A model generated the notes under the pieces. That model was not told the origin of the DNA. It saw only the letters and a program-made list of their open reading frames with translations, and made no database searches. Below, piece by piece: positions 12,695 through 52,900 of a DNA stretch of 64,000 nucleotides; position 1 is the stretch's first letter; each line of letters opens with the position of its first letter. Position numbers and translations under genes: made by a program. Source of the stretch: Massalongia carnosa (lineage: Eukaryota); assembly GCA_965645245.1 (NCBI GenBank), contig OZ287069.1:2418001-2482000 (forward strand), given 5' to 3'.

Positions 12695-13017
12695 CTTCAT
12701 CGACTAATCATCTTCAGCATTCATCGACTGTTCACCTTCGGCCTTCATCCTGTCTTCCCAGCATTACATTTCGCCCTACTCAAACGCTTGCTTCACCATC
12801 TCCAGGCTATCAGCGCCACCGATCGAGATCCTTCAGATGCACGTGTGATGAAGACTTATCTCAAACGACAACACCTACCAGTCACGTGACAGCACTACTA
12901 TGTAAGCTTTGAATCAAGTCTTTAAGGAAACGATAGCCGAGTTGATAAGTAACTAGCGCAGGACGGGGACTCGGAGATAAGGAGGGGTATTACGCAGTAG
13001 TTAGGGCTATTGCCAGG

Positions 13018-13260
13018 CACGCGAGTGACAAAATTAAATTTACACCGAAACTTTTTCCTCACCAAAATCACCGAATTTTCTGTCATAAACCGTAGCGTTT
13101 TTTTAGTTAATTTCATGGTTTTTTGAACTTCAATAATTAAATCAACAATCTGACATTCTGCCTTCATCATCAATCACTGCTTGCAAACTTTAGGCATTAA
13201 ATCACGATGATTTTGGTGGGGGGGAAATTTTGGTGTAAATTTAATTTTGTCACCTGCGTG
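13018..13260. mobile_element. 243-bp MITE with ~56-bp TIRs starting CACGC; related to the element at 48246-49585
   Basis: CACGCGAGTGACAAAATTAAATTTACACC.. at the left end and ..GGTGTAAATTTAATTTTGTCACCTGCGTG at the right; flanks CCAGG and CTAGG. Confidence 0.9.
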
Positions 13261-13417
13261 CTAGGATAATGGAGACAAAAGATGGATAAATGTATCTCTC
13301 AACCATGTTTTTATCCCTCTTTGAACCGTTAAACCCCATCCAAAGCCTTCTGGTAATCTTTACTCATCGACTTACATTCCAACGCAGTTCTAGAATCCCC
13401 AAAAAATATAATTCCAT

Positions 13418-39891: not shown

Positions 39892-41337
39892 GATGTGAAG
39901 CGATGAGTTGAAAACGAAAGAGACTAAGAAATGGGAGAGGAGGGGTTTTTTGGGAGGTTTTGAAGGAACTCTACGGAAAATGGTCGTCCAAACCGAAGAA
40001 CCAGGGCTAGGGGGATTGGGGATGGAATGGGCTTTGTGTGAGGACCTTCATCTCGGAGTGTGGAGGCTGTGTGAAGCGGAAGAGGTTCTGCAGCCAATCG
40101 TATTGATGAAATTATACCTAATGTAAGTACTGTATACCTAGGGATCTAGATACCCATTACTGACTGATATCTTACAAGATATCTTACAGAGTACATCGAA
40201 ACGGAACAACGGGATGATTCAACGTAAGAGAGAGAAGCATAAGCGGTAATGTAAATGACGCAATACGGGCCGTGGAGCATGACCCATCCCGGCCCATACG
40301 ATACCTAAAGGATCTATCCAGTCTTCCTCATAACCTCACAGTACAAAGGATACCTCGAGCGCCTTTGTATGTATTCATGTACCTTGGTCAGTACAGAGCA
40401 CGGATAGGTATTACTAACCACTTCGGATTTCGAAATCTCCATCTAGACCCAAGCAGTCTCAAGGCCGTCAGGCTGGGATTTCAGCTTTCAAAACACCCTT
40501 TCTCACCAGGGCCAGACGAACTAAGCGGGACAGAAGGTGCATGACGGCATCTTCAAACAAGTTTGAGAGGGTTCACAGGGTACGGGTTTGAGGTACGCGG
40601 CTGAAGCGAGCGAAGGCTCCGCGAGTGCATAAATCTTTTGTTTCCCTCCATTTTCCGTTGGGATCGCGGCTCAGCTTCCTCTGGTGGCTTTGCGAGGCCT
40701 GTCCACATTGATTTCGGGGGGAATAGTTAGAGTCACATCGGCTGAACGATTCGGTGATGAAAGGCGCCAGGTACTCCGTGTATGAGGCAGGTTTTACTCC
40801 GTCCATATTAGATGTTAGCAGTCTACAAGCGACTCCACTTACTCTGTACTCTGTAGATAGCCCAGGTAACACGCCCGGTTGCTAGTGGGCATCCACCATC
40901 AAAGTTCCCCAAGTGGACCCAAGAGATGTGTGGTCAGGCTGTGTACTGCTTTCTGTCGGGAGAGGTCTGACGGGGTCTGTCGGACAAAGCGGAGCAGATG
41001 AGAGGGCTGAGCAGACTAGAGGGACGAGAGAGCGATCAGAGTGATGTCTGTTTGTCTCTCTCATGAGCCAGTCCTAGCATCTCCGATCGAGGGGAGAAGT
41101 CGTTCCAAGGTGACGCTAACGGCGAACGATGGTGACATCCCGCCGCCTTGCCGTATCGGGATTAGACGACGCGTGGCGGAGTTCGGCTTAACTACTTCCA
41201 CCTGTGCACTAACCGTGCGACCGAGGTAAATCCGATGGACCGCACCCGGAGCTACGCTCCAGGTGCGGCTCACCTCCATGACGCTATCATCTCCATGACG
41301 CATTTTTATCATCAACCATTTATTATTCAACCACATC

Positions 41338-43241
41338 ATGTCTGATTCGTACAAGAAACGAGAGGCTAACATTGCAAAGGCCTTAGATGCATTTGCGAAG
41401 AACACATACAAATCAGCCGCATGTGACGAAGCGAGACAGTGAATAGATTTCTACCATTGCGCCACCTGTCCTTCCCGACCAAAAGGCACAATACTTAGTC
41501 CGCAGACCAAGCTCTATTCTACTATAACTGGGACTCCTGCTATGTTCGCTGTAGGTCCTGCCGTCCGCACCACGCTTGGTCGGACCGTTACACCGCAGCC
41601 TGTGCCAAAGAATTCGATATTTCACCTCCTCTATTTCAAAGAAGACTACATGGATATAGCAAGCGAAAAGCAGTCAATATGAGGCTGTCTGCTGCACAAG
41701 AACTAGCCCTGAAGGAGTATATTGAATTTCTTGATGATATTGAATTATCAATGAGATTGCCATTGATTCGCGGTGCAGCTAATTATTTGTTGCAATTGCA
41801 ACATCCTTCCTCGTCTTCATCTTCTCTCACCCGCGTAGGAAAATGCTGGACCGGACGATTCTTGAAAAGAAATCCCCAATTTTTCATGCAAAAAGGCAAG
41901 CCATTAGCAGCCGAAAGGAAAAACGCTCACAATGTTACGGATATTCAAACTTATTTCTCTTCATTTCAATCGACTGTAGCCCTTCTTGGTATAACTCCAG
42001 ATGATATATGGAATATGGATGAGACAGGCTTTCGAGTTGGCTGTGGGGTAACCCATTTGGTGGTGACACTATCATCACATAAACTAATTATGATCGCTCA
42101 TCCAGACAATCGAGGCTATATAACTTCGGTCGAATGCATCAATGGAGTTGGCGGAAGCGTCCCATCCTTTTTGATTTTGAAAGGGGTCAACATACTTCAC
42201 AAATGGGCCTTAGAGAATGATTTGAAAGATGATATCGTGTTGACTACAAGCGATAGCGGCTATTCGAATGATTGTCTAGCATTAGAGTGGCTAAAGCATT
42301 TTAATGCTCATTCAATAAAGGTTCAAAAAGGAGCGTTTAGGCTTCTTTTGTTGGATGGATATGGATCTCATCTAACGTATGAATTTTGGGAATATTCGAA
42401 AGAAAATAAGATCTGTTTATTCAGATTACCCCCCCATTCAACCCATTTGACGCAGCCATTGGACGTTGGTGTTTTTCAGCCAATGAAACATTATCATGCT
42501 GAAGCGGTTGACAACGCCATTCGGTTGGGTGACGTTGACTTCAATCGTCTGGATTTTCTGGCCGCATTCAATCAATTTCGTACAAAGGCATTCAAATCAT
42601 CTACTATCAAATCAGCCTGGGAAAAAACTAGGTTGATACCTTACAATCCGGAGGTAGTCTTGACCAAAATTCGTGCTTTAAATCCGGCATTACCACCACT
42701 ACCAATATCATCTTCGGAGACAATAATCCTACCTCATACCCCCAAAAAGCCCAAAACCGTTGCTAAGGAAGGGGAAAACATTATTCTGCGAATGAATAAT
42801 AATGAAGAAATTACTCCAGAAAGAATGCGACGTTTTATCAAAGGGTCGGTTGCAAACGCTAATTTACTAGAATTGACGCAACGCGACTTGCAAGCCACAC
42901 ACACAGCTGCATTAGCTAAAAGGGCCCGAAAAAAGCTTGCTGGCACCGTTGTTCAGAAGGGAGGAATCGTTACCGTTCGAGATGTGAGGCAAAATCACCT
43001 ACATCGTACCCAAGAAGAGGTGGAAAGGGAGGAGGGTCGTCAAAAGCGTGCTGAGACGGCTAGACAAAAGAAAATATTTATCTATGGAAAAGCGATAGCT
43101 AAACGGTTTGGCTTGGTGGGTAAAAAGGCCGAAAGCTGGATAGATGAACGTCAGCCTTTGATTTTGAATAGCTTCATTTTGAAAGGGTCAATCAATGGAT
43201 ATAATGTAAATAGTTTGAGAAATGCGTCATGGAGAGGATAG
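41338..43241 (+). pseudogene. Fot1-type DDD transposase interrupted in its N-terminal HTH by a solo LTR; remainder is an open 520-aa ORF
   Basis: WNMDETGFR, LLLDGYGSH and QPLDVG are intact. Removing 41422-41597 restores MSDSYKKRE..KSAAACAKEFDISPPLFQRRLHG..NMRLSAAQE in frame. Confidence 0.9.
41422..41592. mobile_element. solo LTR (171 bp), 5-bp TSD
   Basis: TGTGACG...CGTTACA termini; CCGCA is duplicated at 41417-41421 and 41593-41597. Confidence 0.88.
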
Positions 43242-43326
43242 CGTCATGGAGGTGAGCCGCACCTGGAGCGTAGCTCCGGGTGCGGTCCATCGGATTTACC
43301 TCGGTCGCATGGTTAGTTATAACTAA

Positions 43327-46325: not shown

Positions 46326-48245
46326 TCCAGAACGGAAACGGCAATTTCAAATCCAAAGTTCGGGGTGTATATAAAATATATATTGCAAATAATCTGTTTT
46401 TTTACTCCTGTATGTATGAGCAAGAAAACTGATCTGGCTTCACTTGTTCAGTGAGAATATCTTCGATTAATGCTCTCTGGGTCACCGCTATCAGCACGTT
46501 CATGTCAGCAGAGAAGGGTTAAACCCATGTCCGCTATCATACCAACAAAGTGATAGCTGCTCGGTATCAGCTGTCGTTAAGGATGGGCAGAGGTGCCAGC
46601 TCTTCATTGAGACTAGCCTGGGGTTTCGTGCTTGTTATCATTCCCACTAACCTGCATTTCCCACACTGTGATATTCAAACTAATTTCACGGCGCAAAGAA
46701 CTGGGCTTTTCTTATAGAAACCTCCAAAATCCACGTCAGTCATGGCTCATAATGATATGGGAACTATCGCGATTGGTAAAAGAGCTTCAAAGTACCTAGC
46801 ATGACTGTGCGAGAGCTGCGGAGTCTTACAAGAATCAAGTTTGCTTACAAGCTTAGAGCACTGCATCCAGACTTGTTCTATGGTGTATTCAAATATCCTG
46901 TGCTTGAATGCACATTTATGGCCATGACGGAACGCTTGGGGGCTACTCATAGCTCCAGCACAGATACATTGCTGCTCTAAAAGCAGCCCTAAATAACGTA
47001 TGTATCCCAGTGTGTCTTCTCAAACCTCCTAATGAAAATATCCAGTGGAGAAAACCCAACCAGCACCAATCGGGCTATCTCCTGAGGCTGGACTTCCAGT
47101 TCCCATTGTATTCCCAGGATATTCTAGAGAAGAAATCTCCCGTACCATGTGACATGGACGGTTCAAGGTTTGTATTGCCTCATTTCAATACATCTCTTTT
47201 CCGTCGCAACCTCTTTCAAGTGGACAAATTCATCGCCCAGTTCCAGTCCATCAATCAGACCCAACCAGAGCAGATTACTCGAGCCATGTTAGATGAGGCA
47301 TTAAGACGCCTTATTGACGCTTTTTATCCACAAAGGATCGCAATTCAAACGAGAGTTACTCGATCAGGTCGGCTCCTCCCCTAAGCTATGCCCTCCGTGC
47401 CCCACCCGCTAAAGCTTAACAGATATTCACTAGCACCCCTGACCCCAGCGGCCCTCGAAAACCCAGTAACCGCCAAAGCCGCATACTTAAAGCCAAGCAT
47501 CGCCAAGCTCTAAAACGCGAAGCTTCCAAAGCCGCCGTCATCCATCCCTCACCAATGCCCGACGACACGCCCACCCCCGAGGCAGCAGAACACGACATTT
47601 TCTCCGCTCTCGAGGCCTGCCTCGGCGAAGCTCAAGCCCGGCTGCATACCACCTTGCCAACCTAGCGTTAGAGATGCAGAGATCAATACGTTATTTGCCA
47701 TAGCAAGTAATGCCCAACCAGTCTCCTTCTACCTCCGCCCCCGCCATACACAACTCAAGGAACCTCAAGCATCGTCTACATCATTCACTCATCTCGAATC
47801 CGAAAAGAATCTCTCGCACGGAGGATACCTTTGGTCGTTTATCTCACTTGTCACATCATATCCTATCGTATCATCCATCTCATGTTGGTTCCCAATTGTC
47901 CAGAGATGGGCATCAGGTGCCAGGCTGGCGCTACCCTTGGGGAACGGCAAGGAGCACAGGGAGAATCGTAGAGATTGTAATTACGGAAAAAATACCCTGG
48001 GTGTAATTTCGAAATTTTGCGGGCCTAAGCAGTTGTTGGCGGGGAAAGAAGTAATACACAGTTTTCTATAATTGGCTTGGGGGGGGGGGGAAGTGTTGAT
48101 TTTATTTTTCTTTTCTTTCTTTTCCAGTGCTAAAATGCCATTATGGCAACACAGCGCATGCCGGCAGGCAACTCTTGTTGTGTTTATTGTACATACACAC
48201 ACACACCTTGAGTATTCACCGAGGAAAAGGTAATCCAAAGAACCC

Positions 48246-49585
48246 CACGCGGGTGACAAAAAAAATTTTACTCACAAACTTTGACGTCACCAAACCATCA
48301 AATTTTGACCCCTTTTCAACCACCACATTTTATACACCATCATTTAGTCATGAATAGAGCTACCACACCTGTTTTGGACTCGCATGAGGCTCAGACCCAT
48401 CATCCCACCCCCACACGGGCCAAAATTCAGGGTGCAGTGGAGTTTTGCGATGCGATGAAGATTCGTTATTTCAAAGAAGATGTTTTTCATGTTTTCGGCA
48501 CTTCAAAACAAACTGGCTGGAAAATGTTGACAAGAGAAAATTCCAGTCGTATTTGACACAATGCCGACATTCCTGAAACACGTGGACGTCATTCAATTGT
48601 GATCTCGAGACACATGCGAGAGATGGAGCGTATTTTGAAGACAGAAGGCATGGAGGCTCGCGGGTTAACCTGGGTTCAATTGGGCTACGAGGTGGGACTG
48701 GAGTGCAGTGGTCGTACAATTCAGAGAGTTATGGGTACGATGAATTATCATAAATGCATTGCATGTAGAAAAGACTGGATCAGCGAATCGACGATTAAAC
48801 GTCGTTTTGAATGAGTCATCGTCATGAAAGAAAGATATCCTGATGATGAAGACTGATTTTCTGTACGATTCAGCGATGAAATGCATTATAGCTATGAATT
48901 TCAGAAGAAAATTTGCATCATTCGCAAGCCGGGTCAACGATACTGTCAAGATTGTCTTCAAGAAACGAACGAATCAACTGAAAAAGACTTGAATAAAAAG
49001 CATGCTTGGGCTGCTGTGGGCCACAATTTCAAGTCAGACATTCGTTTATACGACGTTCCGGGCAACACTAATAAAAAGATGAGTCAAAGGGTCTATATTG
49101 ATCAGATTTTGAAGCCCGTCGTCAGGCCGTGGCTTGACAGAGGTGATGATTTCTGTCTGAAAGAAGATGGTGATTCAGGGCACGACACTAGTAAAAACAA
49201 TATCGTACGCAAATGGAAGGAAGAAAATGGGTTGAAAAGCTATTTCAACTGTGCTTCGTCTCCTGATCTCTCACCTATTGAAAATTGCTGGCAGCCACCC
49301 AAGCAGTATATTCGCAAATTCTCTCATTGGGATGAGGCCACCACGGTAGGACTGATTCATGAGGGGTGGGCCACGGTTTCGCAAAATTTCATCAATAGCA
49401 AGGTGGCTGAGATGCCGAAACGGCTGCAAGCGGTGATAGATGGTGACGGTGCGATGACGGGTTATTGATAGTAGTAGGAGTAGCAATAATAATAGTGTGG
49501 TGCCACGATGCAAATAGGGGTCAAAATTTGATGGTTTGGTGGGGTCAAAATTTGTGAGAGTAAAACTTTTTTTGTCACTCGCGTG
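48246..49585 (+). mobile_element. Tc1/IS630-type DNA transposon with ~68-bp CACGCG-starting TIRs and non-TA flanks
   Basis: TIRs at 48246-48312 and 49517-49585; flanks AACCC| and |ACCCC. Confidence 0.92.
48350..49468 (+). pseudogene. Tc1/IS630-family DD37E transposase with three in-frame stops
   Basis: VRFSDEMH, LKEDGDSGH and SPDLSPIENCW, with 37 residues between the second D and the E; MPKRLQAVIDGDGAMTGY*. TGA stops near 48554, 48812 and 48854. Confidence 0.88.
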
Positions 49586-49920
49586 ACCCCTTCCATAGAT
49601 GAGAGCCCTGTAAACTTAATGGCAGCTTATCGATGTCGCTCGGGCTGCAGAGCGCAGTTTGATTGACGAAGCTACATATACGGATTCTTGCTGGCTAGTA
49701 AAATAGACCATGAACGAGAGAAAGAGAGAGAGAAGGCGACAGCTGCGGAAATCCAAGGGGTTCTTGTTTACTTGGAAAACTTTATAAACGTAGTAGGTGC
49801 TCACACAGATATATCCCGTTTCGCCCCTTTGCCAATAGACCCGCATATCTAGGTAACAAACATACTGATCACAACCCACCTCGTGAACCCCAATCTCCTC
49901 CCCTCTCCCCTCCTTGAAAA

Positions 49921-52900
49921 TCACATCAAACTGCTTCTACCCCCAATCTCGCTCCCCCCCTGTCCGCTCGGCATCTCCCCGTTCCTGCCCACGACGAATT
50001 CCCGATAAATACGGGCCAATCTACTCCGCTCGTCCACGCTAATGGAACTTCTTGTCGAAGCCAGAGAGGCTTTGATATGCTTCCATTGAACGATCACGGC
50101 GGGGTTCGCGTCACCGTCGTTGTCATCGATTCTATCCCCTCCCCGCTTTCTGTCTCCTTCAGGGCCTCTGGTGGCTTGGTGGAGGAGGGAATCTTCACCG
50201 CGACGTGCGTGCCGTTCTCGACGCTCGATTCTCTTGATTGCCTCGAGTTTGGCGGAAACCGAAGGTTGCTGGTGGGTAGGTGGTTGTGGACGGGGTATAG
50301 TGGATCCTGGGCTCTCTTCGCCGCCAAAGCGGAATTGAAGGGGTTCTTTTTGGGGCAAGTTTCGATGATCGAGTTTGTTCTCGATTTGGTTAGCCTTCTT
50401 CAAACCGGGTTTGTTCGAGTTCTTGTCATCCAGCAGGTCATGGATAGCTTTGAGATGGGCATTGTAGATGACCGCTTGCAGATCCGCCCCCGAATAGCCT
50501 TCGGTACACCGCGCGACTTCAAGAAGACTCTCCCGCGGATCTATAGCTCGAAGGAGATCAGGACTAAGATAAAGTTTCTTGCTCAGAGCTTGAAGAATAT
50601 CATGCCGATCGTCCAAATTGGGTAGATCACAGATCAATGATTTGTCTAGCCGGCCAGGTCTTAGCAGGGCAGGGTCAATGAGGTCAGGTCTCGAAGTAGC
50701 TGCAAGTACGTATACGCCCGACAGACCTTCTGCGCCATCCATCTGCGTCAAAAGTTGATTGACCACGCGGTCGGTGACACCAGTGGAATCATGCCCTCTT
50801 TTGGGCGCTATGCTGTCGAATTCATCAAAAAACAGCACACATGGCCTGGCGGCCTCTGCTCGTTGAAACAGATCCCTCACGCTCTTTTCGCTAGCTCCAA
50901 TGTACTTATTCAGGATCTCAGGGCCTTTTACACTGATGAAGTTAAGGCCACATTCTCCCGCTACTGCACTTGCCAACAGTGTTTTCCCGCACCCGGGGTA
51001 TCCATACAATAGTAGACCCGACCTGAGCCGTAGTGGGCACTGCGCGAAGATAGGAGCATATGCAGTTGGGTATTGCAGAGTCTCCAGAAGAGTCTTGCGA
51101 GTCTCAGAAAGGCCACCTATGGAATCGAACCTGGTCGTAGATGATTGCAATGTCACATTTCTCAAAGAAGCAGGGGTAAATCCTTTGAGCGCGCGTTGAA
51201 AGTCTTCTTTCCCTAGTCGAATGTGTGTCTCTTCATCCGAGTTTGGTAAGAGATCAACTAATCTTATTAAAGCCTCACTCCTTGCGCGGGAGACAAGAAG
51301 CACTAAATCTCCTGGCATATAGCCGTCAGTTTGTCCGGCGAGGTCAAGGAAGTCAAGGTTTGTATCAGTTTCAAATGTTCCAAATGCGGAAGAAGACTTG
51401 GGTGAATTTTTTGAAATAGATTCACCCATCCACGCGGCTTCGTCCTCGTGACTATCAGCTGGAATCCTGCCAAATGTGCCGACGCCATTGGATCCAGAAA
51501 TCTCATCCTGTCTGCCACGAACAAGCCCTTCAAGAAAATGGCGCCTACTATCCTTGTCAGGTGCCTTCAACTCAATAATCTCTCGCACTACGTGCCCCCT
51601 AGTAAGAACACTATTGAGGCCTTCTTTGCTCTGCGCTGTTGCAAGCAGCACAATACCTGAGTTTATACCACCATACTGATGCACCTTCGCGCAGAAGAGT
51701 TCGCTAATTTGTCGACTGCGGTCGTTATTTCCACCAACTTGCAATTCTGTTTCAGCAGGGCAAAGCTTATCAAAGTCATCCAGTATGACAACAGCACGCC
51801 CACCAAGCTGGGTCCCCCATGAAGCTGTCATTAGTAATCTATCAAGTGTCTCCTTGATACTTGAAACGCGTATATCGTCACTGACTAGTTTTGTGCATGA
51901 TAAGAAGGCAGCATGGAATAACGAGGTGGAGCGTAGCTTTTGCCCAAGTAAACGTGCCAGGGAGGTTTTACCAGATCCAAGTCCACCAGTCAAAAGTACA
52001 GAAGAGGAATGTAAAAGGATAGAAAACAACTGATCAATGAGTTTGGTGATACCAATCATTTGCGAAGCGTCAACTGACAGAAAATCATTTCTAGTCACCC
52101 CTGCTTCGAAGCTATGTAGTGGGTCTGTAATATCTTCTTGTACTTCAATGGATAAATCAATCTCATTCCCAAGGACCCAGCCCAAAGCATCGTTATCGCT
52201 ATTTCCAGCGCTCACAGGTGGAGGATCAAGTCGTATCAGGACTCCTTCCCAAGGATCTTTGGACACGTCTTTTTTCGGGTTCCTCAATACAAGACGATCA
52301 GTTATTGGACCATCTAAAACACATGTAAGGCTATGGCCTTTGGCGGCATAGTGACTTTTGATCATGCCAGCCATTGCTTGATGCTTATTTTTCGACTCTC
52401 CTCCAAACCTTAAGCCATCACCCCATTTGAGCCCACTAGCGTTGAACGGGAATAATTTCAGGGACCTTATTTCAGTCTTTGATAACCGCGGTGGTGCTGT
52501 TTCTATTCGGATAAGACCACCCACGATCCCTCTACATCCCAACGCAAAACTCAGGGTAGAAGAAAGTGAAATATGGCGTACATCAGGCGCATCGTCCCAA
52601 ACCGCTAATTCTGCCACTACCTTGACAGCAGGTTTGACAGTTCCACTTGCTTCTGAATCTCTAACCTTTTGCTGCTGCTGTGGATCCGCAGGCGAGCCAA
52701 GCGCGGGTGGCCGCACAACCGATACCTGAACCCATTTGAGTCCTCTCAACGGTTTATTCAATAAAATCTCTGGGTCTAGCCACACTTTAAGTCCAACATC
52801 CCGAGATGAAGGAGTGACATCATCGAAGAACTCATGAGAGGAAATTCTATCAACAGCGCGGAAAAAGAGAACCTCGCGGACAGATGAGCGCTTCTGTTCG

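Follow-up and report, generated by a model that had tools for sequence, protein, structure and literature searches.

A dead copy of a fungal Tc1-type transposon from a widespread lineage with 5-bp target-site duplications in place of TA

The impala and mimp elements of fungi reportedly duplicate TA at their insertion sites, as is said to have been found by Langin et al. in 1995 and by Dufresne et al. in 2007. Duplications other than TA are known within or beside the IS630/Tc1/mariner group, where Tc4 and Tc5 duplicate TNA, TBE elements ANT and Zator 3 bp; these are precedents for a changed duplication, but they involve 3 bp and other branches, against the 5 bp described below. TA duplication serves as a diagnostic for the IS630/Tc1/mariner group and as a rule in the tools by which TIR elements and MITEs are classified, and it is stated for the superfamily in the TRT paper (PMC5630946), in PMC7325037 and in PMC13728883. 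TRT, together with Mosquito/MS and L18, has DD37E spacing in common with the lineage treated here but occurs in other hosts, namely animals and protists. Impala, a Tc1-family element of Fusarium oxysporum, is listed as DD37E (PMC7325037), and mimp is given ends of about 27 nt (PMC3599309) with the end consensus CAGTGGG.GCAA[TA]AA (PMC6131394). Duplications of 5 bp are associated with Transib, which the 2005 paper PMC1131882 names as the only eukaryotic DNA-transposon superfamily to produce them, and which a fungal survey (PMC5751038) gives as missing from fungi. The 'Smini' repeats of Sordaria also carry 5-bp duplications and are solo LTRs in their authors' view.

The window, the whole 64-kb stretch of DNA that was analysed, contains at 48246-49585 a dead copy, 1340 bp long, of a fungal Tc1-type transposon whose lineage is widespread (Table 1). 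On the plus strand CACGCGGGTGACAAAA is read from 48246, and on the minus strand CACGCGAGTGACAAAA terminates at 49585. With up to two mismatches, the 16-nt terminus has four matches in the window, where 0.06 would be expected, and four or more matches were reached in none of 100 shuffles; the remaining two matches are the borders of a smaller insertion at 13018-13260. A repeat search returned a 31-nt inverted repeat at 90% and an offset 59-nt pair for the coding element, and when the outermost 70 nt of the two ends were aligned with gaps, 63 of 72 columns were identical and there was a single 2-nt indel, from which the lengths of the two ends were set at about 67 and 69 nt. Each end runs from a CACGCG(G/A)GTGAC terminus through an A-run to two CAAAYTTTGAC(CCC) motifs with a spacing of 24 nt, and these motif pairs are putative transposase-binding sites. 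Sleeping Beauty likewise has two motifs per end. The junctions read gaAACCC-CACGCG on the left and CGCGTG-ACCCCtt on the right (hyphens mark borders, here and below), and TA is absent from the bases adjoining either end, so that the CACGCG termini, the lack of TA and the AACCC and ACCCC flanks were found just as the original prediction for this DNA had described them. Read as 5 bp the flanks differ by one mismatch, and read as 4 bp they give a perfect ACCC.

Table 1. Positions in the window of the two insertions and of their parts
Feature	Positions	Strand	Remark
Left duplication copy CCAGG (miniature element)	13013..13017	+	Equals the family target consensus CCWGG
Non-coding MITE-like derivative, 243 bp, sister subfamily	13018..13260	+	
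Right duplication copy CTAGG (miniature element)	13261..13265	+	One C-to-T change from the left copy
Left target-site duplication copy AACCC (coding element)	48241..48245	+	One base off the right copy; 5-bp length taken from relatives
Left terminal inverted repeat, about 67 nt	48246..48312	+	Terminus CACGCGG, A-run, two CAAAYTTTGAC motifs
Transposase pseudogene, 372 codons and stop	48350..49468	+	Three in-frame TGA; DD37E
Right terminal inverted repeat, about 69 nt	49517..49585	-	Two exact GGGGTCAAAATTTG copies at 49517-30 and 49541-54
Right target-site duplication copy ACCCC (coding element)	49586..49590	+	

The window stretch is present, whole or in part, in five public runs, one of which is labelled as a lichen metagenome, and the contigs of four of them (X1, X2, X3 and X5) were compared over 47000-50800. 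In X1, X2 and X3 a contig of the left flank enters the element by 27-29 nt and another contig begins 57 nt before its right end; since flank contigs thereby cross both ends, the insertion at this locus is occupied in all three. An empty, pre-insertion site was seen in none of X1, X2 and X3, which is why the duplication is read from the flanks, and X5 had no bridging contig. Contig pieces lying on the element numbered 38 in X1, 474 in X2, 103 in X3 and 31 in X5, and their summed depth, which is not a copy number, far exceeds the depth of the flanks; the element family is multi-copy in the host. These copies also served to fix the left terminus at 48246, because they diverge exactly there: unlike sequence begins just before that position in four contigs of X1, eight of X2 and six of X3, and the consensus of the loose ends, at low agreement, finishes in CA, GG and GG, respectively, not in TA.

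Compared with the other copies in runs X1-X5, the window copy has A for G at 18-26 and T for C at 10-16 places per run, the opposing counts being 4-7 for C>T and 5-9 for G>A. Among the 26 sites listed (40 of 76 rows), the base before which the inferred C-to-T change took place was C in 15, T in 9, G in 2 and A in none. The pattern is one of RIP-like hypermutation outside the classical CpA context, and the neighbouring bases may themselves have been mutated.

The transposase occupies a single frame of 372 codons (48350-49465), with in-frame TGA at 48554-56, 48812-14 and 48854-56 and with a terminal TGA that is followed by TAG TAG TAG. The motifs FSDE, EDGDSGH and SPDLSPIENCW are found in it, and the catalytic codons are D176 (48875-77), D273 (49166-68) and E311 (49280-82). 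In a 30-sequence alignment of the window copy and 29 relatives, each of the three residues is conserved at 90% or more and the second D is separated from the E by 37 residues, and the Tc1/IS630 signature with DD37E spacing that had been proposed earlier is thus right. The Pfam domain DDE_3 was recognised in the window protein at 29.9 bits, above its cut-off of 28.6, and HTH_Tnp_Tc3_2 reached 25.1 bits in this copy, under its cut-off of 31.5; the corresponding entry PF01498 is recorded in many intact relatives (e.g., P0002 and P0004). When a profile of 30 relatives was compared with solved structures, the sole match was the catalytic domain of the Sleeping Beauty transposase SB100X (5cr4_A, E=4e-16). 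Further transposase copies within the 64-kb window were sought by tblastn and none was found.

At the positions of the three in-frame stops, the close copies P0076 (83% identity) and P0013 (93%) have R, W and W, P0013 spanning only the last of these. Recoding of TGA as tryptophan was considered, as two of the three stops fall on a conserved W, and was rejected, as the remaining stop is R in close copies and the frame itself ends in TGA TAG TAG TAG. The R, W and W of the relatives, along with the TGA at the end of the frame, identify the stops as transitions, from CGA and TGG to TGA, that mark the copy as dead.

On sequence grounds the transposase is placed in the Tc1 branch of IS630/Tc1/mariner, where DDE_3, DD37E, a putative N-terminal Tc3-type helix-turn-helix and impala-like ends all point. 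Among named elements the nearest counterpart is impala with its miniature form mimp, and the likeness to them includes a fungal host, Tc1-family membership, a length of about 1.3 kb, one transposase gene, DD37E and the presence of miniature derivatives, and the mimp end consensus resembles both CACGCGGGTGACAAAA of the window element and CACGCGGGTGCAATAAC of the related locus L021. The impala protein was absent from both listings of homologues, that of the window protein and that of a distant member, and the link to impala consists of the likeness in end motifs and the shared DD37E spacing. In contrast to impala and mimp, the window lineage duplicates 5 bp, and its ends measure about 65-70 nt versus about 27 nt in mimp. 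With Tc1 and Sleeping Beauty the lineage shares a homologous catalytic domain (the SB100X match above), probably the Tc3-type helix-turn-helix, and termini that begin with CA, but these systems combine DD34E with TA, whereas here DD37E is combined with 5 bp at a different target. As in the Tc1 family, the inverted repeats start with CA and there is one transposase gene in about 1.3 kb; insertion at TA with TA duplication was not found, TA standing on both sides at 0 of 23 sites. Judged by the homology of its transposase, the lineage belongs inside IS630/Tc1/mariner, and it departs from the classical TA diagnostic.

Searched against a large protein collection, the window protein had 230 relatives at E<=1e-3, and those with names come without exception from ascomycetes (Bimuria, Clathrospora, Pyrenophora including P. 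tritici-repentis, Macroventuria, Rutstroemia, Acephala, Geopyxis and Parathielavia), and the use of a distant member as query added Exophiala, Gaeumannomyces, Hirsutella, Drechslerella, Xylaria and others. When metagenome contigs were scanned with the alignment, 79 related loci at 36-65% identity were returned, 24 of which have a stop-free match in one frame. To find the ends of these loci, the sequence upstream of each was compared by BLAST with the sequence downstream, and strict anchoring, meant as an unbiased test, required that both ends carry C[AT]CGCGG and that they match at 17 or more of 25 end bases. This gave 28 end pairs, from which three duplicates of the same site, a weaker alternative end and a case at a contig edge were dropped to leave 23 unique sites; a further 16 unique sites with variant termini were judged by eye, and 32 loci were without two recognisable ends, being at contig edges or truncated. 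Locus L053 at first seemed to be a relative flanked by TA on both sides, but this is doubtful, because further out its left end has CACGTGCTCGG in common with L057, and the right end is degenerate. The exact 16-nt terminus was also encountered in at least 120 stretches of prokaryote genomes, with a single match in each, no paired end and no transposase by tblastn, and these matches were put down to chance.

Perfect 5-bp direct repeats flank the element at 14 of the 23 strict sites, where 0.045 would be expected from non-self pairings. Repeats of 1, 2, 3 and 4 bp were present at 7, 4, 2 and 0 of the same sites, with 7.3, 2.8, 0.5 and 0.23 expected, and repeats of 6 to 10 bp at none, with 0 expected. 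The fourteen duplications are ACCCC, GCTGG, CCTAC, CCGTG, GTGGT, CGAGG, CCGAG, CCTCG, CTACC, CTTAT, CGGGG, AGAGC, CCACC and CGTAA. Seven of the 16 sites with variant ends also have perfect 5-bp repeats, namely CGTGG (L001), CCTGC (L002 and L021), CCAGT (L013), CCATC (L052), CGAGT (L056) and CCTCC (L072); one more (L012) matches at four of five positions, one (L039) is ambiguous, as it can be read with a 5-bp GTACG duplication or with TA and ends 3 nt longer, one (L068) has a 7-bp repeat, and six have no repeat. The duplicated 5 bp belong to the target and not to the element, because the duplication differs in each of three copies of one family (CCATC, CGAGT and CCTCC). The tabulation of flanks that had been proposed for copies of the element was thus carried out on its metagenome relatives, and its outcome supports the suggestion of an ITm lineage in which target choice and cut stagger have changed.

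That the element might after all be an ordinary TA-duplicating Tc1 or impala-type transposon, with decayed flanks or with true ends lying further out at TA, is hardly credible. Such a reading has the rule stated for the superfamily (PMC7325037 and PMC5630946) on its side, as well as the TA option at L039 and an enrichment of T and A at positions -8 and -7, which lie outside the duplication; it is opposed by the strict sites, with TA on both sides at 0 of 23 and perfect 5-bp repeats of differing sequence at 14, by the exact divergence of the host copies at 48246, and by the direction of decay, as C-to-T change creates TA and does not remove it. A duplication of 4 bp, which the exact ACCC at 48242-45 and 49586-89 would allow, is very improbable, since 4-bp repeats were found at 0 of 23 relatives against 14 of 23 for 5 bp, since the miniature element is mismatched at 4 bp and matches at four of five positions at 5 bp, and since the coding copy is accounted for by a one-base change or by a C lost from the C-run of the left junction. 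The original prediction had left the choice between an exact 4-bp and a one-mismatch 5-bp duplication open; it is the 5-bp alternative that stands, and the 4-bp alternative does not.

The nine strict sites without a 5-bp repeat match at 0, 0, 1, 1, 1, 1, 2, 3 and 3 of five positions, and recombination, decay or chimeric metagenome assembly may account for them. They could instead be taken to mean that the duplication is variable in length, mostly 5 bp with a sizeable share of 3, 6 or 7 bp or none, owing to a loose geometry of target capture like that of RAG-mediated transposition. Besides these 9 of 23 sites, such variability would fit L009, where the repeat is offset by one base, L018, where CCC alone is shared, and a 7-bp repeat at L068, but repeats of 3 bp occur at just 2 of 23 sites and those of 6 to 10 bp at none, so that no alternative length is preferred, and decay together with assembly chimeras is the simpler explanation; variable length is accordingly regarded as unlikely, and a fixed 5-bp duplication as the preferred reading. 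At three sites with no matching duplication (L017, L022 and L077) the consensus CCTGG stands at the left end next to an unrelated right flank, a pattern suggestive of recombination among copies or of chimeric assembly, and not of a missing duplication.

The sites themselves share a sequence preference. In 20 rebuilt sites the duplication has 70% G+C, versus 44.5% in the 20 flanking bases, C occupies its first position in 16 of 20, and the second and third downstream bases are T in 14 and A in 16 of 20. The recognisable ends, read outward, amount to 63 unique ones, with probably a few spurious internal matches among them, and have the consensus T(-8) in 33, A(-7) in 35, S(-6) in 45, C(-5) in 31, C(-4) in 33, W(-3) in 40, G(-2) in 28 and G(-1) in 27, with binomial p values from 1e-3 to 2e-7 for the consensus positions. 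The insertion target is a loose 11-bp palindrome, TAS-CCWGG-STA, and the two window copies are therefore read as 5-bp duplications with one mismatch each. The left copy at the miniature element, CCAGG, equals the consensus, and the coding-copy site fits it poorly. With respect to the orientation of the gene, the 20 rebuilt sites are asymmetric, with C at position 1 in 16 of 20 and G at position 5 in just 7 of 20, and in this small sample the downstream STA is stronger than the upstream TAS, which a symmetric complex would not predict.

The miniature element at 13018-13260 has ends that pair with one another at 50 of 62 positions, and its end is identical to that of the coding copy at 48 of 67, low enough for it to be assigned to a sister subfamily. 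Its surroundings read ttgCCAGG-...-CTAGGat, with CAGG and CTAG at 4 bp and four of five matching bases at 5 bp. This insertion had also been predicted to lack TA, which is true of the bases that adjoin its ends but not of the right flank CTAGG as a whole, where bases 2-3 are TA. Both window insertions are old enough to have acquired one mismatch per duplication (AACCC/ACCCC and CCAGG/CTAGG).

Relationships among the relatives were reconstructed in a 57-row maximum-likelihood tree (quick search, SH-aLRT support only, midpoint root), which excludes 12 duplicates of the same sites and 11 rows that were frameshifted or short. Sites with 5-bp duplications are found in every major clade and on either side of the midpoint root, and the window copy is sister, with a support of 86, to a 13-row clade that contains six of them. 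The 5-bp duplication is a trait of the whole ascomycete lineage and not of the window copy alone. Some members appear to have been active recently, because locus L006 combines an intact 365-aa ORF with 66-nt ends that are 100% identical and a perfect ACCCC duplication, and recent activity elsewhere in the lineage is likely.

The reading in which we have high confidence is that the window element is a decayed, mutation-disabled copy of a cut-and-paste transposon of the Tc1 branch, whose lineage inserts with a 5-bp duplication at TAS-CCWGG-STA and not at TA. By analogy with Tc1/mariner and other DDE transposases, the enzyme would bind the ends of about 68 nt, probably through the two CAAAYTTTGAC-type motifs in each, and would cut at the CACGCGG termini to excise the element. 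A symmetric multimer would then join both 3' ends to the two target strands at phosphates separated by 5 bp, a distance that is 2 bp in other Tc1/mariner elements, and gap repair would yield the 5-bp duplication. Such a shift of stagger from 2 to 5 bp would imply an altered spacing of the active sites on the target or an altered bend of the target. If impala, also listed as DD37E, does duplicate TA as reported, the DD37E spacing by itself cannot account for the 5-bp stagger.

The lineage resembles Transib and RAG in its 5-bp duplications, GC-rich targets and CAC ends (PMC1131882), but the Transib transposase is unrelated to that of the lineage, in which Pfam finds only DDE_3 and, below its cut-off, the Tc3-type helix-turn-helix, and nothing like a RAG1 core. 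The resemblance is a case of convergence, because the window protein is Tc1-like; the original prediction had noted that such termini and GC-rich duplications are typical of the unrelated Transib group. Within the literature searched, the lineage joins Transib as a second group of eukaryotic cut-and-paste elements that duplicate 5 bp. The papers searched, as distinct from Repbase, Dfam and the additional files of phylogeny papers, which may list these families, describe no Tc1-type element with such a duplication, and the 9-mer motif matched only primers and the like.

A broader reading, for which we see about even odds, is that an old Tc1-family lineage extends across the Pezizomycotina, was reset to 5 bp at TAS-CCWGG-STA, retains intact and probably active members, and went unnoticed since its members were annotated by transposase homology alone. 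Tool rules based on TA would mis-sort or drop both the coding elements of the lineage and their miniature derivatives. Close relatives with a common catalytic fold and a stagger of 2 bp in one and 5 bp in the other form a natural pair for comparison, which could reveal the features of DDE transposases that determine the stagger and the choice of target, and an intact member could serve as a Tc1-type vector with a different integration profile.

The window also holds a pogo/Fot1-like element at 41208-43317, with 98-nt inverted ends at 98% identity, which can be read as TA-ACCGTGCG...CGCATGGT-TA. This fits the TA duplication earlier attributed to a Fot1 element at 41212, and the usual TA duplication here provides an in-window contrast to the 5-bp elements.

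A few of the metagenome loci have features of their own. L068 (668-2024) and L069 (226-1585) represent a distant subfamily at 36-38% identity, with DD37E and with ends that begin CAAGGCCTGGCCAAAAAAAGTGG; L068 is flanked by the 7-bp direct repeat CCCAGGT, and L069 has no repeat. In L074 (2303-2393) a second, solitary right end of a related family (...GCAACCCGCGTG) lies 90 bases downstream of the right end of the element and is followed by CGTAC, which is one base off the CGTAA duplication of the L074 element. In the subterminal region of L051 a 12-nt unit (CAACAACGCCTA) is repeated in tandem about four times on the left, and the right end has about 1.5 copies of it.
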